A stretch of DNA of 55,816 nucleotides from Bacillota bacterium. Its GTDB lineage: Bacteria; Bacillota; Dethiobacteria; DTU022. How positions within the stretch are numbered: the stretch's first letter is position 1; each line of letters begins with the position of its first letter. The notes beneath the pieces were generated by a model, which worked only from the letters and a program-made list of their open reading frames with translations, did no database searches and had not been told where the DNA came from. The stretch spans positions 1 through 55,816 of the forward strand of contig JAAZPS010000055.1 of NCBI GenBank assembly GCA_012797095.1, given 5' to 3'. Made by a program: the position numbers and the translations under genes. Below are positions 25,630-38,175 of the stretch, in pieces.

Positions 25630-26460
25630 CTAGCGGCTGGCACCGCCCCCGCCGGAAGAGCCGCCGCCAAAGCCGCCTCCCCCGAAACCTCCCCCTCCGA
25701 AACCGCCGCCACCGAAGGTGCCCCCGCCGAAGCCGCCGCTGCCAAAGGGGCCCTGGCCGGAACTCCCGAAACCGCCGGGCGGAAATCCGCGCCAGTGACG
25801 CCGGCCAAATAGTATGGAGATGAGCGGAATGATCAGAATAAGAATCAACAGAGGGATAAAGATAAAGCCCGCCGGACCAAACCCGCCTTTCGATCGATCG
25901 CGGTACTCTTCCAGCGGCGCAAGGACTCCCTCCGGATCGACGCCGTATTCAGCAGCAACCTCTGCTGCCAGGGCCAAGTAGCCCTGCCGGATCCCGGCCG
26001 CATAATCCTTGCTGTGCCACTCGGGAAGCACATATTGATCGAGGATATAGCCTGCTTTACCATCGGGGATGGCCCCCTCGAGGCCGTAGCCCACCTCGAT
26101 GCGCACCTTGCCGCCCTGATCGGCGAGCAGCCTTTCCCGGTCCACCAGAAGCAGGAGCCCGTTATCTTTATCCTTCTTGCCCAAACCCCAGCTGCGAAAG
26201 AGCGACAGGGCGTACTCCTCGATCGGTTTTCCCTCCAGGCCTTCCACCGTAACCAGAACCAGCTCCGCTCCTGTTTTACGCTCCAGCGCATCTCCGATGG
26301 CGGAAAGCTCTGCTACTGTAGCCGCATCTATCAGGTTGCCGAAATCATTCACGTACGCAGCGCTCTCCGGGGGCGGCATGATCGCCTCGACAGGGACTGT
26401 TCCCCAGAAGGAGGCAAAAAAAATGATCACGGCTACACTTATCCGCAGCGCTTGTTTCAC
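25630..26460 (-). CDS. TPM-domain protein (YgcG-like) with TM segment and Gly-rich C-terminal tail
   Basis: A signal peptide is followed by the TPM core VNDFGNLI.......L......LE..TGAELVLVTV..L.G..IE.YA..LF..WGLG....DNG.LLLV. The tail is made of GGFGGG repeats. Confidence 0.85.
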   Translation of the reverse strand: MKQALRISVAVIIFFASFWGTVPVEAIMPPPESAAYVNDFGNLIDAATVAELSAIGDALERKTGAELVLVTVEGLEGKPIEEYALSLFRSWGLGKKDKDNGLLLLVDRERLLADQGGKVRIEVGYGLEGAIPDGKAGYILDQYVLPEWHSKDYAAGIRQGYLALAAEVAAEYGVDPEGVLAPLEEYRDRSKGGFGPAGFIFIPLLILILIIPLISILFGRRHWRGFPPGGFGSSGQGPFGSGGFGGGTFGGGGFGGGGFGGGGFGGGSSGGGGASR

Positions 26461-26521
26461 CAGATTCTCCCCTTAAAAAGATCTGTCAGATAGGGCAAAG
26501 AAAGCGATTCCCGCTTGCCGC

Positions 26522-27094
26522 TTACTCGTTGAACTCAACCTCGGGGACAGTATGGGCTCCTTCATCGGCCTCAAAGTAAGCCCTGCTGCCAAAACCGAAC
26601 AACCGGGCGATGAGCAGGGTCGGGAAGCGGCGAACAGCGGCATTGATCTCGTTTACCGAACCGTTGTAATCCCGCCGGGCCACGGCGATACGGTTTTCGG
26701 TGCCGGCCAGTTCGTCCTGCAGCTGGCGGAAATTGGCATCGGCTTTCAATTCGGGATAATTTTCGACAATTGCCAGCAGCCGGGACAGGGCGCCGGACAG
26801 CTCCAGATCGGCGGCGGCAGCGGATTCGGGGTCGCCCACCGCTCCGGCCAGTCTCGCCCGGGCGGAGCTGACGCTGTCGATGACCTCTCTTTCATGAGCG
26901 GCATAGCCCTTGACCGTGGCGACCAGGTTGGGGATCAGATCGAGGCGCCGCTGCAGCTGGTTTTCAACCTGGCTCCAGTTGTTGTTGACCTGTTCATCCA
27001 GGTTGACCAGGCGGTTATAACTTCCGGCCAGCGGTAGGGCCAGGATCAGCACCAGAACGACCACTCCAAGCAAGATCTTCAATCCGGTTTTCAT
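26522..27094 (-). CDS. LemA family protein
   Basis: An N-terminal TM segment is followed by YN.LV.L.E.V...W.QVENQLQRR.DLIPNLV..VKGYA.HE......V..AR. Confidence 0.9.
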   Translation of the reverse strand: MKTGLKILLGVVVLVLILALPLAGSYNRLVNLDEQVNNNWSQVENQLQRRLDLIPNLVATVKGYAAHEREVIDSVSSARARLAGAVGDPESAAAADLELSGALSRLLAIVENYPELKADANFRQLQDELAGTENRIAVARRDYNGSVNEINAAVRRFPTLLIARLFGFGSRAYFEADEGAHTVPEVEFNE

Positions 27095-27341
27095 TGCACT
27101 GCCTCCTTCTGTAGCCAGCTCCAGGGTATTGATCTATATTCAATTTGCACCACTATTTTAACTTAAAAATAAGGGAACGTAAAGAGTGTCCGGGGAATTG
27201 AACCGGTACACAGCAACTTGAACCCTTATTTTTATCAGGGAAAAAGATCCGGTCGGGGTTGAAGCCCCTGCAGTGATGCAGATCTGGGATGATGGGGCGG
27301 TTGTCTATTCAAACTTTCTCGGGCGGGTTGCCGGGCGAACT

Positions 27342-27890
27342 TTACGCCTGGCGGGGCCGGCTGTCAGCCTCAAAACCTCTGATCCGCTGCAGCCCCAAAA
27401 CAAGAATAACCGTGATGATGGTTCCGATGATCAGCTCGATAATACCGTGTGAAACAGCGACGAAAAGAGCGCCGGCAAAGGGCAGATATCCCCGTAGAAC
27501 GACCATCCCCAGAACAAGTACGGTGTTGGTGGCGCTGCCGACAGCCCCGCCCAACGCTATGGCAAAAACCCGGTTAATTCTTCTGGTGGCGGCGTAAGCG
27601 AAATAGGCGAAAACACCGATAAACAGCCGTGGCAGGATCGCTACCAGGGGATCGGCAAACAAAGGGCTGTCCGCTCTTAAAAAGCTGATGATCCCGAAAA
27701 TCAGTCCGATCAGGAAGCCGACTACGGGCCCTTCAAGGATCCCCCCCAAAATGGCCGGTATATGCATGATCGTCATATTCCCTGCCGGGGTGGGGGCGGG
27801 GATAAAACCGAGAAAGGGGATATAACCCATTAAAATAGCGATCCCCCCCAGTATACCGGATATAACGATCTTGCGGGTTGTAAGTTTCAA
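27342..27890 (-). CDS. ECF transporter substrate-specific (S) component, substrate unknown
   Basis: A small ~6-TM protein whose N-terminal LTTRKIV..GILGGIA... is typical of ECF S components. I place the start at TTG 27890, 8 nt after AAGGAGGAG. The track start 27914 would place that SD inside the ORF. Confidence 0.7.
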   Translation of the reverse strand: MKLTTRKIVISGILGGIAILMGYIPFLGFIPAPTPAGNMTIMHIPAILGGILEGPVVGFLIGLIFGIISFLRADSPLFADPLVAILPRLFIGVFAYFAYAATRRINRVFAIALGGAVGSATNTVLVLGMVVLRGYLPFAGALFVAVSHGIIELIIGTIITVILVLGLQRIRGFEADSRPRQA

Positions 27891-28219
27891 CAGCAACTCC
27901 TCCTTTATGAGCAAATGTTGAGAAAAGATAACAATCTTTCTTTGAATTCTACGTCAACCCCCGAAATCCTTTATTTAATTTTATTACCAGTTCAGGACCT
28001 AATTTACAAAACGGCGGTGTATTCACCTCAGTCTATTTGCCAGTGTTGCAGTCTCTATCAAAAACAGATCGGTGATCAAAGGAGCTGGTAAAACAAATAT
28101 TTGGAAGGGCAGTCTGTTTCAAAATGCTGAAGAAGATCTTTTGAAGCCGGCGCGGGGCAAAGAAGTTACCGAAAAACATCCCAACATTAATCACCGGGAA
28201 CAGGCCAAAGAACCAGCTG

Positions 28220-28687
28220 TTAACCCCTGAGCACGGAAAGAAGCCTTTTTTCATCCAGCAGCAGATCAAGGGCCTCCTCGCTGGATCTAACCAGCACGTT
28301 GGCGGTAGCAAGCAGCGGCGCGTACAAGCCCTCTGATTCGAGTACAGCGATCGACAGCGCTGCCGCGTTGAACATGAGCAGGTCGTTTCTCCCGTTGCCG
28401 ATGCAGGCGCAGAAAGGCCCGCCCAGCCTATCGGCAAACCGATATTTGCTCTCTCCGGCATGAGCGGTACTGTAAATCTCGAGCGTGACCGGCAGCCCCG
28501 CCAGCTCCCTGGCTGCGGTTTTCTGCGTGTCGGAGGTGAGAACATAGAGACGGTAATTTTCCGCCAAGCGGGCGATGCGCTGCTTCACGCCTTCCTTGAT
28601 CAATCCATCCACGGCAATGGTGCCGTTGAAGTCCATGAGCACATTTTCCAGCGTTAAGATTCCATATCCGGGGATCTCAAATCTCAT
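28220..28687 (-). CDS. HAD-superfamily protein of the 'soluble P-type ATPase' type (COG4087-like)
   Basis: LMDFNGTIAVDG (motif I) and IGNGRNDLLM (GDGxND-like motif) are present. ATG 28687 follows AGGAGAG. Confidence 0.75.
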   Translation of the reverse strand: MRFEIPGYGILTLENVLMDFNGTIAVDGLIKEGVKQRIARLAENYRLYVLTSDTQKTAARELAGLPVTLEIYSTAHAGESKYRFADRLGGPFCACIGNGRNDLLMFNAAALSIAVLESEGLYAPLLATANVLVRSSEEALDLLLDEKRLLSVLRG

Positions 28688-28750
28688 TGTCATCTCTCCT
28701 ACCAGCAAAAACTTTTTTCTTCTTTACCCCACCCCCCAATAACTGATCAC

Positions 28751-28907
28751 GGGGACGGTGACTTTTGAGTCAAGGGGACGGTGACTTTGACTCACCACAT
28801 CAGGGTCAGCTTTGAGTCAAGGGGACGGTGACTTTGACTCACCACATCAGGGTCAGCTTTGAGTCAAGGGGACGGTGACTTTGACTCACCACATCAGGGT
28901 CAGCTTT
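28751..28907. repeat. tandem array: three perfect 47 nt units plus a leading partial unit
   Basis: The unit is GAGTCAAGGGGACGGTGACTTTGACTCACCACATCAGGGTCAGCTTT. It occurs at 28767-28813, 28814-28860 and 28861-28907, preceded by the partial GGGGACGGTGACTTTT (28751-28766). Each unit contains the inverted repeat TGAGTCAA-N13-TTGACTCA. Confidence 0.95.
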
Positions 28908-29493
28908 GGCCTTTACTGCCTGAAAGCAGTCTCCGGGCCAAACCCGAATACCGGGATGCGGTCACAGCAGGAAAAGCGGCGTACGGCAGCGTTGATCTTT
29001 TCGCCATGGTGTTGCTAAATCTATCTGCGCCCAGTCCAGGCCGGTTCGCCCGACAGTCGAAAAAAGTTGGCGTCGGCCTTCAGCTCAGGATACTATAACG
29101 ATCGCCTCCCAGTTCACGTTTGGCGTAACCCTTTACTTCGGGGCAAAGCGGTACTGCAGCTTTGTTTCAGTGGTTATTTATCAGCGCCCTGGCCGGGTTG
29201 ATCAGGTTGTTGCGATTCCCGGCCAGTACCAACAATAAAACAACCCCCACCTGCAATAGTTACGCAATTTTGTTTTGCTCAATAAATTGTATCCCAAACT
29301 GCTGATACGGTAAAGGTACAGGTTAACAGGCAAGTACTTGATATTTCCCGCAGTTTTACCGCGAGCGGCAAAGGAAAGCACAGGTGAATTTCTTTGATGA
29401 ACTATCCAATGCCATGAACAAGTGATATGGTTACTTTGGAACAATTGGATGATTATAAAAGTGATGGCAAAGATATTCCGTGGAGGCGCTTGC

Positions 29494-30057
29494 ATGATCA
29501 ATAAAACTTGGCCTGTGCTTCTTTTGCAGTTGATATTCCTGCTCCATAACTGTACAGCCTGCAGCCCGGACAACCGCTTGCTGTACGATCCCAATTTTGA
29601 TGAGCATGCGCAATGCCTTGATGCTTCTGAAAGTCCCAACTTTGATTACTCTTGCACCATAGAGGTCAACGGACAGCCACCTGAAGGAAGTTGCCTATCC
29701 CTGGTCTATAATGTAAATATTCTTCTCAAGGGCAAAACGGCGTCTTATGAAAATGTATGCGTAACCTGCCTGCTGAACAGTGTCGTTCAGGATTTACTGA
29801 GTAACAGCCGCAAATATTTCGGTACTGATGTCTCCGAACAGATCACCCTTTCAAAAGAGAATTCCGCTTTGGGAGTTGCCTTGAGCACCTGGATTGAAGA
29901 TGCTGTACCCCGGTCCCAACTGCAAAACTGTTTAGAAAAGCCTTTCAAGGTAAAGGTTAAATGGGCTCACGGGGAGGAGTATGTTCTCATAGATGATCAA
30001 GAAATTAAGTTGTACTCTGTCGAAAATGGGCAAACAGGCGGGGAAGAAAGGTGGTGA
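29494..30057 (+). CDS. hypothetical secreted or membrane-anchored protein in the low-GC islet
   Basis: It has an N-terminal hydrophobic signal (MINKTWPVLLLQLIFLLHNCTAC) and GGAGG upstream of ATG 29494. I recognise no family for it. Confidence 0.45.
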   Translation: MINKTWPVLLLQLIFLLHNCTACSPDNRLLYDPNFDEHAQCLDASESPNFDYSCTIEVNGQPPEGSCLSLVYNVNILLKGKTASYENVCVTCLLNSVVQDLLSNSRKYFGTDVSEQITLSKENSALGVALSTWIEDAVPRSQLQNCLEKPFKVKVKWAHGEEYVLIDDQEIKLYSVENGQTGGEERW

Positions 30058-30061
30058 TTCT

Positions 30062-30274
30062 GTGACCACGAAAACTGCGGAACTCATGGTGGAAGGTATC
30101 TCTTGCAACCATTGCGTTGCGTTGGTCAAAAAGGCTTTGGAGCAATTAAGTGGAATCCAGCGGGTCGAGGTGGATCTAAAGGCAAAAAGGGTACACGTTG
30201 AATATGATCCGGCAGCAGTGAATTACGAGTCCATGAAAAAGGCCGTTGAAAATCAGGGCTACCGGTTAGTATGA
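30062..30274 (+). CDS. copZ: heavy-metal-associated (HMA) domain metallochaperone, CopZ-like
   Basis: MVEGISCNHCVALVKKALEQL.G...V.VDL....V.V.YD has the CxxC metal site and the ferredoxin-like HMA pattern. GTG 30062 follows GAAAGGTGGTGA. Confidence 0.75.
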   Translation: MTTKTAELMVEGISCNHCVALVKKALEQLSGIQRVEVDLKAKRVHVEYDPAAVNYESMKKAVENQGYRLV

Positions 30275-30846
30275 AATTCCCAATTCGGCAACCGACAACA
30301 TAGATCTTTATCAGGGCTGCGTAATGTGAGAATTACCTGGAAGGGTAATTGGCAATTTGCTGTTTAGGAAAAATTAATTCAAAGGTACAACTTTTAACCC
30401 CGAGAATTGTAGAAAACAGCTCTAACAACCCCTAAATTATGAAGGAAAGAGCATCCATAAAAGGTCGTTACACGTTTCTAAGTTTCCGGAGCCACGATCG
30501 TAAATTAACTGATGCTTGTGAGTAAAATGTTGGTGGGGGGAGGGGATTGGAAAAACCAGCTTTAAGCAGGAGAAGAGAGACCTCATTCCGGAAGGTAGTG
30601 TTGTGAGAAAAACAACCAACGGAGGAGGCCTCTCAAGTAATAGTGATGTGGTTTAGGACTACTGGCAAACAAGACCCAGCGGTATTTTGAAAAATGTTTT
30701 CTGGAGCGAGGAAATTTACCCGTTAGGTATTGACACAGTGAACTGATGCGATTTCTTGAAGCAGAAAGCTAGGGCATGATATAATTGGATCATTCGGATG
30801 GGTCAGGAGTTGATGGGATGACCGACCAGAGAACCGATGGCCATGA

Positions 30847-31263
30847 TCTGATGTCCCCGAAGAAGTCCATTTCATGGAGCTGCCCAAACTATTTGATGAA
30901 AAGATCTCTCTTGTCTAGGACGCCCCCGTTGTGCAATGGATGACCTTTATCGACGGAAAATAGAAGGGGGTGATGGAAGTGCTGGCTCAAAAAAACAAGG
31001 ATATCAAAAGCGCCTATGACCTGTTGCAGATCATTAGCCAGGATGAAAAAGCGAGAATGATCTATGAAGCCAGACAAGCGGAGATCCACGATCAGTTGAC
31101 CCGCCTTCATTCAGCTCATCAAAAAGGTAGGTTCGAGGGCAAGGCCGGGGGCTTGGAAGAAGCCAAAGTTAACTTTGCCAGACTGATGCTGTCGGAAGGC
31201 GAAGATATAGTCAAGATCGTTAATTACACCGGTCTGTCCAGGGAAGAAATGGGAAAATTGTAG
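30847..31263 (+). pseudogene. C-terminal remnant of an Rpn/YhgA-like (PD-(D/E)XK 'transposase_31') gene, interrupted by in-frame stops
   Basis: One frame reads SDVPEEVHFMELPKLFDEKISLV*DAPVVQWMTFIDGK*KGVMEVLAQKNKDIKSAYDLLQIISQDEKARMIYEARQAEIHD.... The two stops are TAG 30916-30918 and TAG 30961-30963. This resembles the conserved IH.IELPKF ... DE..R..YE.R tail of that family. The N-terminal nuclease domain is absent. Confidence 0.55.
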
Positions 31264-31459
31264 CTGCGCAGAGTAAAAAGCCGTTGCTGCAACTCGCATT
31301 ATTTACGGCAGGCGGAATATAGGAAAGCAGTTGAAACAGACCAATAGGACAGGACTCCGTTAGGTAAACCGCAATGTAAGTATTACCCGCTACCAATAGC
31401 CAGTATTCCACTTATCTGACTTGCACTAAACCCTGTAACCGCCGGGGGGGTGATCACCT

Positions 31460-33949
31460 GTGCTCGAGCTCCGGCCCGTCATGGCTATAAGCCTCTGTTA
31501 TATTGCTGGCATTGCCCTGGGGCGGCTCTGGTTGGAGGCGCCGCTGTGGGCGCTGCTGCTGCCGGTGCTGCTGTTTATTGCCATGGGATGGGCTCTCTGG
31601 AAAAAACGTCTCAGTCTCTTTGCAGCGGTTTTGTTTTTGATAGCGACGGCCGCCGGGGCGGGCGCTTTTTTTGTGGCTTTCTACCCGCAAAGCGCCGGCG
31701 AGGGGCTGCTCGATTATGTTGATCGTCCAATTTATGTCGAGGGGATGATTACAGAAGAACCGCTGTACTACGACGACCACAGCGCCTATGTTCTGCAGGT
31801 GGACAGGGTGGAGCTGCCGGAAGGGCGCCGCCATGTTGCCGGCAAACTTCTGGTCAAGGTCTACGGTGATGAGCAGGAGTTTTACCGCTACGGCGAAAGG
31901 CTGCGCCTGCGCGGCGCCATTGTCGACCCCCCGGGGAGGAGGGTGCCTGGCGGCTTTGACTATGCTTTCTACCTACGTTCGCAGGGTATCGACGGGCTGC
32001 TCTACCCCAAGGCGCTCCAGATCAGCTCCCTGGGCGACGGTGATCCGGGGCGGCTGCCTGCTTCCGCCATCGCCCTGCGCAGCCGCCTGACCGATGTCAT
32101 CGATAGAAACCTACCCTCGCCGGCGGCGGAACTTTTGACGGGCATCCTTTTCGGACAACGCAGCCGTCTGCCGGAAGAGGTGCAGGCCAGTTTCCGAAAT
32201 TCAGGTGTAGGTCACCTTCTTGCAGTTAGTGGTCTTCACGTAGGGTTGGTGGCGGCGCTGATCCTGGGACTGTGGCGCCTGCTGGGCCTGCGGGGGAAAC
32301 TGCCGTTGTTTATGGCCATCATTCTGGTTTTCGGTTATGCTTACCTCACGGGGATGCGCCCCTCGGCGCTGCGAGCAGCGGTGATGATCTCTTTTGCCCT
32401 GGGAGCGCTGCTGCTCGAGCGGGAGCGGGATCTGCCGACAACGGTAGTGCTGGCTGCCCTGGCGACCCTGTTGATAAATCCTCTTTACCTTTTTACCATC
32501 GGTTTCCAGCTCTCCTATACAGCCACTCTGGCGATTATCTACCTGCAGCCGCCGCTGGCTGAAGCGGCCCGGAATTTGAAGTTGCCCGGGTTCATCCGCT
32601 CTCTGCTGACGGTGACCCTGGCGGCGCAGATCGGGGTTTTACCTTTATGCGCCTACTATTTTCAGCATATTCCGGTGGGGGCGCTCTTGTTTAACCTGCT
32701 TTTGCTGCCGCTGATGTCACCGTTGGTGGGCCTGGGATTGGGCGGGGCGCTGCTCGGGCTTATCTTTCAGCCCGCTGCAGCGGTGCTGCTGTTCCCCTGC
32801 CGACTGCTGCTGGAGCTGTCGCTTGCGATCACCGGTTTGGCCCGTTACCCGTTCTTCTACCGGCCGATCTATCCGCCGGGGCCGGCCGGACTGGTACTGA
32901 TCTATGCGCTGTTCGCCGCCGCCCTTACTTTCTACTACCGATACCGCTCCCGGCAGCAAAAGGAAGCGGTCTCAGCGGTTTCCCCGGATAGAACCGATCT
33001 ACAATCGCAAAAGCAACCGGGGATACTCCCGGCGGGTGTAAAAATTACTTTCCCCCGCAAGTGGTTACTGTTTTTTGCTCTCGGGACTGCTGTTATACTG
33101 CTGTGGGGGGCCGGCCCGATCCAGTCCCGTTCTTCTGATCTGGTGATTACCTATCTGGATGTGGGCCAGGGGGCGGCAGCCCTGGTGGAGGCGCCCTGCG
33201 GAACCACGATCCTGATCGACGGGGGAGGGGATCCGCCGCACCGGGGTGATCCGCGAAGAACGGGTGAGATGGTGCTGCTCCCCTTTTTGAGAAGAGAGGG
33301 GATCCGTTTTATCGATCTGGCGGTGATCAGCCATCCTCACGAGGATCATTTCGGCGGTATGCTGCCCCTGGTGGAGGAGATCCCCATCGGAGCTTTGCTG
33401 ATCTCGCCGGTGCCGGGTGAATCGCCGTTCTACGATCAACTTCTGGATGAGGCCTCTTTCCGGGGTATTCCTGTTGAAAAAGGTGCGGCCGGGCGCTGCT
33501 GGAACTCCCCATCCGGCCTGTTTATAGAGACTTTCGGTCCTCCGGAGAAGCTTTTTGAAGGGACCAACAGCGATCTGAACAACAACTCGCTGGTGATGAA
33601 GCTGAGCTACAGGGAGGTGAGCTTTCTTTTCTGCGGCGATATCGAGGAGGCGGCGGCCTGCGATCTATTCAAAAGAAAAGCGGCTCTCAAGGCGGCGGTG
33701 CTTTTGATTCCCCATCACGGTAGTTTCATGGAGTCGCTTCCGAGACTTGTTCGTGCGGTGAGGCCGCAGCAAGCGGTTATTTCGGTGGGTCCGAATTCCT
33801 TCGGCCATCCTCGTCCGGAAACATTGACTTCCCTGGAAGAAGCCGGCGTTATAACCTGGCGCACTGATCTGCACGGCAGTGTCATTTTCCGGACCGATGG
33901 AGTCAGTCTACGGGTGGAAACGATGCAGAAGCCGGCGCTGACCAGGTGA
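31460..33949 (+). CDS. comEC: DNA internalization competence protein ComEC/Rec2 (competence domain plus metallo-beta-lactamase domain)
   Basis: The core is polytopic, with the motif F...GV.HLLAVSGLHVG. The C-terminal segment YLDVGQG.A.L.E...G.TILIDGG....HPH.DH.GG fits the MBL domain. The start is GTG. Confidence 0.93.
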   Translation: MLELRPVMAISLCYIAGIALGRLWLEAPLWALLLPVLLFIAMGWALWKKRLSLFAAVLFLIATAAGAGAFFVAFYPQSAGEGLLDYVDRPIYVEGMITEEPLYYDDHSAYVLQVDRVELPEGRRHVAGKLLVKVYGDEQEFYRYGERLRLRGAIVDPPGRRVPGGFDYAFYLRSQGIDGLLYPKALQISSLGDGDPGRLPASAIALRSRLTDVIDRNLPSPAAELLTGILFGQRSRLPEEVQASFRNSGVGHLLAVSGLHVGLVAALILGLWRLLGLRGKLPLFMAIILVFGYAYLTGMRPSALRAAVMISFALGALLLERERDLPTTVVLAALATLLINPLYLFTIGFQLSYTATLAIIYLQPPLAEAARNLKLPGFIRSLLTVTLAAQIGVLPLCAYYFQHIPVGALLFNLLLLPLMSPLVGLGLGGALLGLIFQPAAAVLLFPCRLLLELSLAITGLARYPFFYRPIYPPGPAGLVLIYALFAAALTFYYRYRSRQQKEAVSAVSPDRTDLQSQKQPGILPAGVKITFPRKWLLFFALGTAVILLWGAGPIQSRSSDLVITYLDVGQGAAALVEAPCGTTILIDGGGDPPHRGDPRRTGEMVLLPFLRREGIRFIDLAVISHPHEDHFGGMLPLVEEIPIGALLISPVPGESPFYDQLLDEASFRGIPVEKGAAGRCWNSPSGLFIETFGPPEKLFEGTNSDLNNNSLVMKLSYREVSFLFCGDIEEAAACDLFKRKAALKAAVLLIPHHGSFMESLPRLVRAVRPQQAVISVGPNSFGHPRPETLTSLEEAGVITWRTDLHGSVIFRTDGVSLRVETMQKPALTR

Positions 33950-34115
33950 TCCAGACCTGAGGACCGGTGTGTAAAAGACGGGACTGCGGCTGGTACCGGG
34001 CGGGGCCAAACTTCTTGGGTGGGGAGAAGGTTCGGAATCCCTTCCTATTTGTATTTTCGGTACAGAGCCATAATCTCCGCATTTACTTCTCGACTAGCGG
34101 TTCCAACGTATTTAC

Positions 34116-34247
34116 GTGAGTCAAAGTCACCGTCCCCTTGACTCAGTCCTCTTGACTCACTATATTTTGTCTCCCCCAACTCATAAGTGAGTCAAAGTCA
34201 CCGTCCCCTTGACTCATTGGTCTTTGACTCACCGTCCCCTTGACTCA
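34116..34247. repeat. cluster of the same motif as 28751-28907, in inverted orientation
   Basis: GTGAGTCAAAGTCACCGTCCCCTTGACTCA occurs at 34116-34145 and 34187-34216. It is the exact reverse complement of the 5' 29 nt of the 47 nt unit plus the preceding T. Partial copies are CTTGACTCAC (34151-34160) and TTTGACTCACCGTCCCCTTGACTCA (34223-34247). Confidence 0.9.
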
Positions 34248-34344
34248 TTCACCGGGATTATCTTCTGTATCGGTCTTTTTTAAAGGGCAAGTTTCTTTGG
34301 ATTCCGGGGATAATAGAGAAAAGCAATGAGACGGAGTGGAATGG

Positions 34345-35613
34345 ATGCGTATCTTGATGCTTAGCTGGGAATATCCGCCCCGGGTGGTCGGGGGGATTGC
34401 CCATGTGGTCAGCGAACTTTCCCGCGCTCTGGCCAGCGAGGGAAATGAGGTTGAAGTGGTTACCGCTCTGGAAGAAAACTTGCCGGAGATGGAAACGGGC
34501 GGCGGGGTGACCGTCCACCGGGTCGCGCCCTATCACGGACGTCCCCTTAATTTTTTTGCCTGGGTTCACCAGCTCAACCTGGCCATGCTCGAGAAAGGGG
34601 TGCGCCTCTGCCGGGAAAAAAGCTTTGATCTGGTGCATGCGCACGACTGGTTGGTCGCCTATGCCGGGCGGGGTCTCAAACATATCTTCCAGATTCCCCT
34701 GATCGCTTCGGTTCATGCCACTGAATTCGGGCGCAACCACGGTCTGCATACCGATGAGCAGCGTTATATCGGCGAGGTGGAGTGGTCCCTGACCTACGAG
34801 GCCTGGAAGGTGATCTGCAACAGCCGTTACATGCGCTCGGAGATTGAAGGGGTCTTCAACCTGCCCCCGGACAAGATCGCCATTATCCCCAACGGGATCC
34901 GTGCGGAGGCTTTTCAGGTCTCCGCTCCCGATCCGGCGGTGCGGCAAAGATTTGCGGCGGCGGAGGAGAAGGTTCTTTTTTTTATCGGCCGATTGGTCCG
35001 GGAGAAGGGGGTGCAGGTGCTGCTGGAGGCCCTCCCGAAGATCAGCGAGAGGATTCCGAACCTGCGTCTGGTCATCGCCGGGGAGGGTCCTTATGCCGAA
35101 GAGCTGCACCGTCATACTTTAAACCTGGGCCTCGATCGCCGGGTTACCTTTGCCGGCTATATCGATGAAGAGACGCGCAATCAGCTTTACGCCCTGGCTG
35201 ATCTTGCTGTTTTTCCCAGTCTGTATGAGCCTTTCGGACTCGTGGCTCTCGAGGCAATGGCTGCCCAGACCCCGGTAGTGGTGAGCGACACCGGGGGCTT
35301 TGCCGAGACAGTTCAGCATGGGGTCAACGGGATCAGGGTTGCCGTGGAAAATGATTTCGAACTGGCGGAGCAGATCGGTATGCTGTTGGCTCATCCGGAT
35401 GCGGCCCGCCGCCTGGCTCGAAAGGCTTTGCAGGATGTTGAGCGGCATTACTCCTGGTTTTCCATCGCCCGGCAGTACGAAGAGATCTACCAGCAGGTTG
35501 TTTTTTCACCCGAGGCCCGGCGTTGGCGCCGCTGCTCCCCGAAGGAACCGTCTCCCGAAAAGCGGGAACCGGTTACTTCCACCGCTGCCTCCCGGCCGTC
35601 TCGCTACAGCTGA
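34345..35613 (+). CDS. GT4-family glycosyltransferase (glycogen/alpha-glucan synthase-like)
   Basis: MRILMLSWEYPPRVVGGIAHVV.ELS.AL...G.EV.VVT and the C-terminal GT-B segment EPFGLV.LEAMA..TPVV.S..GG..E.V are present. ATG 34345 lies 8 nt after GGAG. Confidence 0.85.
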   Translation: MRILMLSWEYPPRVVGGIAHVVSELSRALASEGNEVEVVTALEENLPEMETGGGVTVHRVAPYHGRPLNFFAWVHQLNLAMLEKGVRLCREKSFDLVHAHDWLVAYAGRGLKHIFQIPLIASVHATEFGRNHGLHTDEQRYIGEVEWSLTYEAWKVICNSRYMRSEIEGVFNLPPDKIAIIPNGIRAEAFQVSAPDPAVRQRFAAAEEKVLFFIGRLVREKGVQVLLEALPKISERIPNLRLVIAGEGPYAEELHRHTLNLGLDRRVTFAGYIDEETRNQLYALADLAVFPSLYEPFGLVALEAMAAQTPVVVSDTGGFAETVQHGVNGIRVAVENDFELAEQIGMLLAHPDAARRLARKALQDVERHYSWFSIARQYEEIYQQVVFSPEARRWRRCSPKEPSPEKREPVTSTAASRPSRYS

Positions 35614-35700
35614 TCGCGTTCGGGGAATGAGCTGCGGGTAAGGAATACCAACAGGGCCTGCATCGAGAAGATCTTCCTACATTCATGGGGGTGACCATCC

Positions 35701-38175
35701 TTGAAAGCAGTGATCATGGCGGGGGGTGAAGGTTCGCGGCTGCGCCCGCTCACCTGCGACCGGCCCAAGCCGATGGTGCCGGTGATGAACCGGCCGCTGA
35801 TGGAGTACAGCGTCGAGCTGCTGCAGCAGCACGGTTTTCGCGAGATCGCGGTTACACTGCAGTATCTGCCCGATCAGATCAAGGATCATTTTGGCAGCGG
35901 CAGCCGGTTCGGGGTGAACCTGCATTATTTTGTGGAAGAGGAACCTCTGGGGACAGCGGGTAGCGTCAAGAACGCTGCTGCGATGCTGGATCGAACTTTT
36001 GTCGTTATCAGCGGCGATGCGCTTACCGATTTCAACCTTACCGAGGCGCTCGAGTTTCACCGCGCCCGCGGTGCGGTCGCTACCCTGGTTTTGAAATCGG
36101 TGGAGAATCCGCTGGAATACGGCGTGGTCATGATCGAACCGGACGGGCGGATCAACCGTTTTCTGGAGAAGCCGGGCTGGGGTGAGGTCTTCAGCGATAC
36201 GGTGAATACGGGGATCTATATTCTTGAGCCCGAGGTGCTCTCCCTCATCGAATCGGGAAGGATGTTTGATTTCAGCAAGGATCTATTCCCCCGCCTGCTG
36301 GAGATGAAGGAGCCTCTGTTCGGCTGCGTGCTGAAAGGGTTCTGGTGCGATGTGGGGGATCTGGGGGAATACCTGCGAGCCCACCGGGAGATTCTGGCCG
36401 GTCGGGTCGAGGTGCAGCTGCGGGGACGCGAGCGCCGGAAGGGGATCTGGCTGGAGGAGGGGGTCTCCATCGATTCCCGGGTGCAGCTGTCCGGGCCGCT
36501 CTATCTCGGCGCCGGCTGCCATATCGAGAGCGGAGCCAGGCTTGGCGAAGGCACGGTCCTGGGGCCCCGTACCCGGATTGCGGAAAGGGCTTCGGTAAAG
36601 CGAGGGCTCACCTGGGAGGGAACCTACATTGGCCGGGATGCCGCCCTGAGGGGGGGGATCCTCGGCAGCGCCGTGCAGCTCGGCGATAGAGCTGCCGTCT
36701 ACGAGGAGGCGGTTGTCGGTAACGGCACCCTCATCGAGGAGGGGGCCGTGATCAAGCCCGGAGTCAAGGTCTGGCCGGCCAAGGTGATCGAGAGCGGGGT
36801 AACCCTGCAAGAAAGCCTTATCTGGGGCACCTCTGTCTCCCGGACTCTTTTCGGCCGCCACGGTATCCAGGGGGAGATCAACCGGGAGATAACCCCGGAG
36901 ATGGTGGTCCGGCTGGGTGCGGTCTGCGGGTCGCTCCTGCAGGGGCCGGTTCTGGTCAGCAGCGATGCCGACAAGCCCTCGGTGACGTTGCAAAAAGCGC
37001 TTGTCGCCGGTTTGCTCTCCTCCGGAGCAGCGGTTCTCGACGCCGGCGAGCTGCTCATCCCCATGGCCAGGCGGGCGACAACCTATCTGAAGGGTTCCGG
37101 GGGGATCCATATTGCCTACTCCTCCGGGGATAAGCAGGAGATCCGCCTCTCTTTCTTTGATGCCGACGGGCTGCCCCTTTCGCGGAATATGGAGCGCAAG
37201 ATCGAGCAGCTCTATTACCGGGAGGATTTTCCGCGCGCTTCTGGCAGCGCCCTCGGGGAGATCCTGCGGCTGCCCGATATGGCGGAGATCTACCGGGCCG
37301 AGCTGCTACAAAATATCTCCTTTAGCAAGTTGAACCGGGCGGGCCTGCGGGTGGTGCTGGGCAATCCGACCTCCTATCTGCGCCGTTTCCTGATTCCGCT
37401 GCTGCAGGAGCTTTCCTGCACGGTGATCACGGTAAATACCGCCCCGGGGAATGGGTCAGCCGGTCGGGCGGGTGAGCCGCTGTCAGAGCGGTACAACCTG
37501 GCCGCGGCGGTGCGCAGCAACAGCGCTACTTTGGGGGCAGTGCTCACCCCGGGCGGCGAGAAAGCGTTTCTGTATGACGAAAGGGGAAAGGCGGTGCAGG
37601 GCGATCTCCATACCGCCCTGCTCTCGCTGCTGGTTTTTCGGGAGCAGCGGGGTGGAACGGTGGCTGTTCCGGTGCATGTTTCGCAGGTGATCGAGAAACT
37701 GGCCGAGCGTTACCAGGGCCGGGTCCTGCGAACCAGGGCTGCACCGCGCTACCTGATGGCGCCGGGGGAGCAGGGGGGCTCGCCCGAAAAAGGCTGCCCC
37801 GGCCTGGCAGCAACCCTGGCCTTCGATGGTGTCGCCGCCCTGATCTACCTGCTCGATCTGCTGGCCGGCCAGGATCTGACCCTGACGGGGCTGCTCGAAG
37901 AGATCCCGGCGATCAGGACAACGGAGCGGGAGATCCCCTGCCCCTGGACGATGAAGGGGAGGGTGATGCGTCGCCTGATCCAGGAATCAAGCAACAAAAG
38001 GACCGAGATGATCGACGGCCTGAAGATCTATCATCCCCAGGGATGGGCCCTGGTGCTGCCCGATCCGGAGAAACCCTCCTACCATGTTTACAGCGAAGCC
38101 TTCTCGGAGGAGTTCTCCGACTCATTGACCGATCTTTATGTGAAAAAGATCGATGCCCTGCTGAAAGAGAGCTGA
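35701..38175 (+). CDS. fusion protein: sugar-1-phosphate nucleotidyltransferase (plus left-handed beta-helix) and a phosphohexomutase-like domain
   Basis: The N-terminus is [33 protein letters not shown], followed by hexapeptide repeats. The C-terminal ~450 aa has the PGM/PMM four-domain layout, but the signature motifs are altered (see findings). The start is TTG. Confidence 0.85.

Follow-up and report, generated by a model that had tools for sequence, protein, structure and literature searches.

A tandem array upstream of a HAD-family gene in a Bacillota genome is probably a cluster of REP-like hairpins of a RAYT/TIRYT-type transposase system

Results

A perfect tandem array of hairpins lies upstream of a HAD-family hydrolase gene

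The window, by which we mean the whole 55,816-nt stretch of DNA analysed here, belongs to a 2.16-Mb metagenome-assembled genome (MAG) of a Bacillota bacterium that consists of 388 contigs and has 58% GC, 94% completeness and 5% contamination. A short tandem array lies in intergenic DNA beside two minus-strand genes, which code for a HAD-family hydrolase and for the S-component of an ECF transporter (Table 1). Tandem Repeats Finder (TRF) reported 3.1 copies of the array unit with a period of 47 nt, 100% matches and a score of 290. Each 47-nt unit is made of a 29-nt hairpin, TGAGTCAA-GGGGACGGTGACT-TTGACTCA on the plus strand, and an 18-nt spacer, CCACATCAGGGTCAGCTT. A sequence-only reading of this DNA had described three identical 47-nt units and a leading partial unit, and direct reading of the sequence together with TRF bore this out; the inverted repeat TGAGTCAA-N13-TTGACTCA that it had placed in every unit is likewise seen in the sequence. 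The first hairpin has an 8-bp stem and a 13-nt loop that carries the conserved motif GGGGACGG, and its DNA fold has an energy of -5.4 to -5.9 kcal/mol (z about -3). The motifs are strongly enriched, with 13 occurrences of TGAGTCAA in the window against 1.06 expected, and seven of GGGGACGGTGAC (at most one mismatch) against 0.44 expected; in both cases none of 100 shuffles gave a count that high.

The leading partial unit contains GGGGACGGTGAC at 28751-28762, 64 nt from the HAD start (28687), and is a 22/23-nt arm-plus-loop extension joined to copy 1. Its ATCACGGGGACGGT recurs without change as the hairpin that precedes RAYT2, a transposase gene on contig C211 of the same genome (see below), and the same arm-plus-loop modules were found on contigs C312, C382, C231, C87 and C326. 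The 18-nt spacer occurs three times in the genome, each time inside the array; it is unique to this locus, which rules it out as a piece of a larger dispersed element.

Table 1. Coordinates of the array, of the second cluster and of associated genes
Feature	Position	Strand	Evidence or remark
Whole tandem array, 3.1 perfect copies	28764..28908	+ (strand with GGGGACGG)	TRF and sequence
Leading partial module: degenerate arm GATCAC, then loop GGGGACGGTGACTTT	28745..28765	+	Sequence
Family-A hairpin, copy 1 (closest to HAD)	28766..28794	+	Exact 29-mer match; R1 covariance model, 39.9 bits
Family-A hairpin, copy 2	28813..28841	+	29-mer match and covariance model
Family-A hairpin, copy 3	28860..28888	+	29-mer match and covariance model
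18-nt spacer CCACATCAGGGTCAGCTT	28795..28812; 28842-28859; 28889-28906	+	Equals the original flank of the repeat
Second family-A cluster, irregular	34117..34247	-	TRF; between comEC and a GT4 glycosyltransferase gene
Second cluster, full copies	34117-34145; 34188-34216	-	
Second cluster, 3'-anchored partial copies	34146-34159; 34217-34231; 34232-34247	-	
HAD-family hydrolase gene	28220..28687	-	PF00702, weak; neighbour downstream of the array, outside the element
ECF transporter S-component gene	27342..27914	-	PF12822, E 7.9e-27; neighbour, outside the element
RAYT1	C325:5846-6849 (L001)		Family B: two copies upstream, one downstream and inverted
RAYT2	C211:9212 (L002/L018)		Upstream family-C hairpin ATATATCAC-GGGGACGGTTCC-GTGATATAT

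We took as conspecific those assemblies with a 100% identical HAD protein, and the exact protein was present in seven other assemblies. The array has one unit in GCA_001577815 and two units in both ERZ940651 and JGI 3300038805. ERZ4239849 has a run of Ns at the array, and in two Logan assemblies the contig ends inside it. Identical copies, a spacer confined to this locus and a unit number that is not constant among conspecific assemblies suggest that the array arose by a recent head-to-tail duplication, in agreement with the recent amplification that the sequence-only reading had suggested. We conclude that the array repeat is real and that its copy number either is polymorphic or was resolved incompletely by the assembly of short reads; part of the variation between assemblies may reflect assembler behaviour or collapse.

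The array adjoins a low-GC islet (29000-31500; 43-49% GC vs 56-61% around it). Inside the islet are an ORF of 187-211 aa that matches no Pfam family, an HMA-domain gene (29993-30274) and another ORF, of 97 aa. The gene order of the islet is the same in the conspecific assemblies; G004, a MAG of the same genus, instead has an aspartate-racemase-like gene opposite HAD, as judged by eye from the reading frame. Elsewhere in the window, a 15/30/45-nt periodic repeat at 25642-25739 lies inside a minus-strand ORF (25630-26460, 276 aa), where it encodes a Gly/Phe-rich C-terminal tail with GGFGGGG repeats.

The hairpin is dispersed through intergenic DNA of the genome and its relatives

We refer to the 29-nt hairpin and its copies as family A. 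The genome of the window contains 47-48 copies (at most 3-4 mismatches), 26 of them exact, at 26 loci, and as many of the copies are found at the ends of contigs, this is an undercount. By a simple codon-usage annotation, 84% of the genome is coding, and each of the 26 clusters falls between genes. The clusters show no preferred orientation with respect to the genes beside them: downstream of genes, 12 have the same orientation and 9 the opposite one, and upstream of genes the numbers are 7 and 9. The sequence-only reading had named, among the findings that would refute it, a generic REP/MITE element at hundreds of positions and an array that varies between close strains. Family A is indeed dispersed in the manner of REP/MITE elements and its array does vary between close strains, but it numbers about 48 copies and not hundreds.

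Copies within a cluster mostly share one direction. Thirteen of the 14 multi-copy clusters are wholly head to tail, and the same holds for adjacent copies in the related genomes G004, G005 and G018. Neighbouring copies have 13-56 nt of flank in common, on one side only, and outside the array of the window their spacing is irregular, from 22 to 348 nt. A CRISPR array, which the sequence-only reading had already set aside, was rejected: the spacers within the array are identical, the spacing elsewhere is irregular and there are 26 loci. Duplicated units stop exactly at ...TTGACTCA, and the duplication ends at that foot in five loci. Appended at the same foot we found shorter pieces anchored at their 3' end (CCCTTGACTCA up to AAGTCACCGTCCCCTTGACTCA) as well as arm-plus-loop modules of 22 nt. 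This anatomy is compatible with hairpin slippage or with a site-specific joining point, and the data favour neither.

The window holds a second, irregular cluster that the sequence-only reading had overlooked (Table 1). It is missing at the orthologous comEC-GT4 junction in G001, G003, G004 and G018, so that the junction of these two genes was not created by the repeat. In the conspecific assembly GCA_046128275 it carries one additional 23-nt arm-plus-loop module.

Among 41 relatives, eight carry the exact 29-mer, and these represent five genera of one family. In public MAGs from anaerobic digesters the 29-mer occurs in at least 104 stretches, and the MAGs that bear it are labelled Syntrophomonadaceae, Syntrophaceticus, Thermacetogenium, Pelotomaculum, Clostridia DTU068 or Bacillota. 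In the variants of G017 and G019 the loop is retained, and the two arms carry changes that compensate for each other (TGAGACA..TGTCTCA and TGAGTAA..TTACTCA). A GT[AG]G sequence stands 5' of the palindrome in only 8 of 47 copies, five of those from two loci. Terminal GTAG or CGTC tags were tried as a defining mark and rejected, being absent from the defining position. Rfam 15 covariance models gave no match at E <=1 in positions 26000-36000. In a long-read MAG (L078, JBMNGL010000001.1, 5988-6037), two family-A copies stand inverted about 12 nt apart, a REPIN-like doublet that is rare for family A.

Hairpins flank single-copy Y1 transposase genes

The genome of the window has two diverged Y1_Tnp genes, RAYT1 (264 aa) and RAYT2 (258 aa), for which the best NCBIfam model is the REP-associated tyrosine transposase, NF047646. 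Against the cut-off of 80 bits for this model, RAYT1 scored 82.6 bits and RAYT2 68.3 bits; RAYT-A, a gene of related genomes described below, scored 73.8 bits, giving a range of 68-83 bits. RAYT1 is flanked by a second hairpin family, family B (GGGACA..GGGACGTAC..TGTCCC, about 38 copies). RAYT2 is intact and is preceded by a third, family C, with about eight copies in the genome. Families A, B and C have a GGGGACG loop in common, and the RAYT2 hairpin loop shares GGGGACGGT with family A. Hybrid copies also occur, and we located them at C147:811 and C387:2685 and on C338 and C53. Perfect stems of at least 7 bp around GGGACG numbered 79, vs 7 for a reversed-motif control.

The cognate gene of family A was recognised in G018 (CAYTXG01) by the family-A copies on both of its sides. 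This gene, RAYT-A (C10:9299-10057, 253 aa), has a family-A hairpin on the gene strand about 145 nt upstream; downstream, from about 8 nt past the stop codon, there is a degenerate and then an exact copy, both inverted. Orthologues with 70-88% identity and the same family-A flanks are present in six further species. Family A stands on both sides of RAYT-A in six of the seven related species, and the seventh contig begins 16 nt before the gene, leaving the downstream copy alone visible. In six of six orthologues examined (L146-L152), the RAYT-A start codon is preceded at about 60-80 nt by an invariant CTATGGTATAATAATCCA box, which is extended -10-like and resembles a promoter. The box stands downstream of the hairpin that precedes the gene, in unconserved surroundings.

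RAYT-A was not found in the assembly of the window, which has just paralogues at 38-46% identity. Besides this assembly, five MAGs hold family A without RAYT-A. No close orthologue was found in the family-A holders G001, G002, G004 and G005, and G004 retains a RAYT-A fragment interrupted by four stop codons, with a family-A copy 12 nt beyond it. We also considered whether family A co-occurs with a close orthologue of RAYT2 and rejected this, as RAYT homologues are present in 31 of 41 relatives at no more than 47% identity, with no correlation. In G004, directly downstream of a RAYT homologue (C95; L025 2352-2505), there are four tandem copies of the family-A-like GGGCCAGGAGATCCGTCCCCGTGGCTCA with a period of 41-42 nt, a further head-to-tail array that adjoins a transposase gene in a genome of the same genus.

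The proteins have the expected catalytic signatures. The HUH motif NHVHLL and the catalytic tyrosine motif RYIHQNP are invariant in 13 sequences, all of which carry a C-terminal extension of about 110 aa. Pfam matches in this extension are weak and all below the gathering score (HTH_23 in two members, HTH_28/Sigma70_r4 in one or two). A RAYT-type protein profile searched against the PDB gave a sole match, E. coli TnpA_REP (4ER8, E 8.9e-6); a phmmer search of the PDB with RAYT-A alone gave no match.

GGGGACG-loop hairpins accompany RAYT homologues across the order

RAYT homologues of other genera and families of the order have upstream hairpins with the same loop and unrelated stems. At 16-17 of 23 RAYT-homologue loci, one hairpin stands upstream on the gene strand and an inverted one downstream. 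In a curated alignment of 15 sequences, compensatory changes affect 8 of 8 stem pairs, with 96.7% paired, a percentage that is biased upward because the sequences were hand-picked and trimmed as hairpins. The covariation score was 0.944, vs 0.226 for shuffles, none of 500 of which reached the observed value, and at most 0.18 for slid controls. A covariance model built from this alignment, with up to 48 candidates scored per genome, has matches in at least 132 of 149 genomes of the class. Family A is one member of this class-wide set of hairpins.

Discussion

The array is very probably a cluster of a REP-like, TIR-type non-autonomous element, family A, that belongs to a RAYT/TIRYT system, and not a control site of the neighbouring genes. 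We place it with REPtrons and TIRtrons because in relatives inverted copies of the hairpin flank a single-copy Y1 (HUH) gene of the RAYT/TIRYT type. The sequence-only reading had offered the end of a mobile element as its alternative, and this came close to the truth, since in relatives a RAYT-type gene has this motif as its flanking inverted repeat.

REP/RAYT systems are defined by a RAYT gene between two inverted REPs that carry a GT(A/G)G head (Nunvar 2010, PMC2817692). Family A resembles these systems (PMC2817692; Bertels and Rainey 2011, PMC3116915; 4ER8) in being a short extragenic palindrome in tens of clustered copies, in the single-copy HUH/Y1 gene between two inverted copies, whose protein profile matches 4ER8, and in the matching of each enzyme to a repeat family of its own, several such families being present in one genome. 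Measured against the description of a REPtron, family A is a dispersed, extragenic palindrome of fitting length (29 nt, where 20-40 nt is expected). Inverted repeats flank the RAYT gene in relatives and, in the genome of the window, flank RAYT1 in the form of family B; the HUH motif, the catalytic tyrosine and the RAYT-specific motifs are present. The GT(A/G)G head at the foot of the palindrome is absent, and the conserved motif is instead the GGGGACG of the loop. Other differences are the 13-nt conserved loop where REPs have a short variable one, the direct head-to-tail clusters where REPINs and BIMEs form inverted doublets or alternate, proteins that are about 90 aa longer, and a copy number below the usual >100. 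As it lacks the GTAG head and is not organised in inverted doublets, family A ought to be kept apart from classical REPs and REPINs.

Family A also bears a likeness to the repeats of TIRYT genes, which are RAYT-like and flanked by inverted repeats with a common GGGGWSAS (Di Nocera et al. 2013, PMC3733652). Some of these TIRs are described as self-complementary and moderately abundant, in dimers or clusters, and head-to-tail dimers as rare for tagged REPs (PMC3733652). TIRYTs correspond to subclass 2.1 of TnpA_Y1, whose proteins are long and have an HTH at the C-terminus (Quentin et al. 2018, PMC6006769). Like TIRtrons, the genes studied here have a RAYT-like Y1 product of about 250-270 aa, with a C-terminal extension that may be HTH-like (its Pfam matches are weak), and inverted flanks with a G-rich motif, which is GGGGACGG or GGGGACGT in place of the published GGGGWSAS. 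Set against the published consensus alone, GGGGACGG and GGGGACGT match seven of its eight positions, with G and not A at position 7. Three features are unlike TIRtrons: the motif stands in the loop of a hairpin with a covarying stem and not in a long linear TIR, head-to-tail arrays dominate, and the hosts are uncultured Bacillota of anaerobic digesters, which are not named in the portions of PMC3733652 and PMC6006769 that were available. In the available portion of PMC6006769, moreover, REP-like sequences were reported as not found near subclass 2.1 genes, whereas hairpins flank the genes here. Family A appears to fit in the TIRYT-like corner of these systems.

Two other kinds of element share part of this architecture. 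IS200/IS605 elements and their miniature PATEs likewise have a Y1 HUH enzyme, subterminal single-stranded hairpins and no classical terminal inverted repeats. The enzyme here, however, reaches 22.5 bits on the IS200 model vs 74-83 on the RAYT model, the genes are single and put at 38-46% diverged rather than identical IS copies, and the hairpins are lone 29-nt structures rather than LE/RE-bounded units. MIRU-type VNTRs are similar as intergenic tandem arrays of 40-100 nt units whose number varies between close strains, but the unit here is a dispersed, transposase-associated hairpin together with a locus-specific spacer. DNA uptake sequences and integron attC sites are improbable candidates, as copy number and architecture do not suit them.

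By analogy with E. coli TnpA_REP and IS200/IS605 TnpA (PMC3479197, PMC8266576 and PMC6006769, for single-strand recognition, cleavage and joining), we propose that the Y1 enzyme would bind single-stranded DNA that has folded into the hairpin, probably at replication forks, and would cut and rejoin beside it, through which the repeats would spread and be maintained. Transposition, cleavage and binding by any member of the family are put forward on this analogy. At the locus in the window, one hairpin copy with its 18-nt upstream flank would have been duplicated head to tail, very recently. The duplication could have proceeded by replication slippage or by unequal exchange between hairpins, or alternatively by enzyme-mediated re-insertion at the 3' hairpin foot (...TTGACTCA|). 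Since the assembly lacks RAYT-A, its copies may be orphaned or served in trans by RAYT2, or the gene may not have been binned. We count against the REP-like assignment this missing RAYT-A, the missing GT(A/G)G head, the head-to-tail clusters and the modest copy number (about 50).

The first of these points leads to a reading in which the repeats are decaying orphans: they would have been seeded by a RAYT-A that has since been lost, and the clusters would now change through host slippage alone, with no enzyme. RAYT-A was indeed not found in G000, G001, G002 and G005, and the same-genus G004 has a pseudogene fragment. The truncation points of the partial copies also vary (GGG, GGGGAC, GGGGACG and GGGGACGG), as slippage predicts. 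Yet 26 of 48 copies still equal a master sequence that is common to several genera, RAYT2 is intact, with the same GGGGACGGT loop in its hairpin, and hybrid copies are present. RAYT-A may, in addition, be unbinned or unassembled in a MAG of 388 contigs, given that repeat-flanked genes are often on short contigs; the RAYT-A orthologue of one related MAG sits on a contig of 1.6 kb. We regard loss of the enzyme followed by slippage alone as a doubtful account, though one that deserves weight beside a REP-like element that is still served by a transposase.

A role at the RNA level is far less probable. Here the hairpins, once transcribed, would be terminators, mRNA stabilisers or leader structures that are kept by host selection and not by a transposase. 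REPs of other bacteria can stabilise mRNA or attenuate transcription (PMC3733652), and in both clusters of the window the CCGTCCCC-orientation core is on the sense strand of the immediately downstream gene. A sigma-70 promoter and terminator scan of 28600-29500 gave a single promoter-like match (29314-29286), and its position upstream of the array may place the array in a HAD leader. If this promoter serves HAD, the leader is about 600 nt long with the repeats inside it. Rfam gave no match on the minus strand in the roughly 500 nt of non-coding DNA (28909-29420) that separate the array from the divergent ORF. Against a selected RNA function, the orientation relative to flanking genes is unbiased genome-wide, the stem has little stability, about -5 to -6 kcal/mol as DNA, and is not followed by a U-tract, and Rfam gave no match. 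A generic hairpin role would also leave unexplained the exact conservation of the 13-nt loop and the flanking of transposase genes. Any effect of the REP-like element on the HAD and ECF-S genes would be incidental, for example through hairpins in a long leader.

The sequence-only reading had favoured an operator or iteron array, in which the TGA(G/C)TCA palindromes in 47-bp phase would bind a dimeric regulator of HAD/ECF-S or serve as replication iterons. Palindromic half-sites are regularly spaced at 57-64 nt upstream of the HAD start codon, and the C-terminal HTH-like tail predicted for the RAYT-like proteins may be able to bind double-stranded DNA. This proposal nevertheless gave way on several counts. 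The 29-mer, including its loop, is present at 26 functionally unrelated intergenic sites, in both orientations and both upstream and downstream of genes, and neither the HAD orthologue of G004 (76% identity, same genus) nor that of JAPXLS01 (71%) has the motif upstream. The unit number ranges from 1 to 3 across conspecific assemblies, and a plasmid or replication-gene context is absent. The stems covary around a constant loop, a pattern that speaks for a folded single strand and against a duplex half-site. The TTGACT hexamers of the array, which had been taken as -35-like, gave no sigma-70-like promoter match in the scan described above. We therefore consider an operator or iteron function highly improbable.

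It is equally improbable that the assembler made or enlarged the array, for although two Logan contigs break within it and one scaffold has Ns there, the entire array is short (145 nt) and the repeat and its flanks recur in at least five independent assemblies, with one, two or three clean units and the same junctions.

Beyond family A itself, we put forward one tentative possibility, which at present seems to us less likely than its negation. The GGGGACG-loop hairpins might be a structurally distinct third kind of REP, with the recognition motif in the loop and not at the foot, where GTAG- and CGTC-tagged REPs carry it. They might be the partners of the HTH-bearing subclass 2.1 and class-wide in syntrophic Bacillota, in which hypervariable head-to-tail arrays grow by enzyme-catalysed re-insertion at the 3' hairpin foot. 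If this were true, the hairpins would be the long-missing DNA partners of the TnpA_Y1 subclass 2.1 enzymes.

Group 1 RAYTs with few flanking repeats have been described in Clostridia (Bertels et al., 10.1101/119735), and our literature search found no link of RAYTs to Syntrophomonadaceae or relatives. For the window, a false lead has been removed, as the array is not a regulatory site of HAD/ECF-S. The repeat family also explains the assembly of this genome into 388 pieces, and arrays that vary between conspecific populations are possible strain markers in digester metagenomes. The DNA targets of HTH-bearing Y1 enzymes are ill defined, and the conserved loop with its covarying stem provides a clean substrate on which these enzymes can be tested. 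Family A documents REP-like repeats together with a cognate RAYT-type enzyme in uncultured Bacillota of anaerobic digesters.
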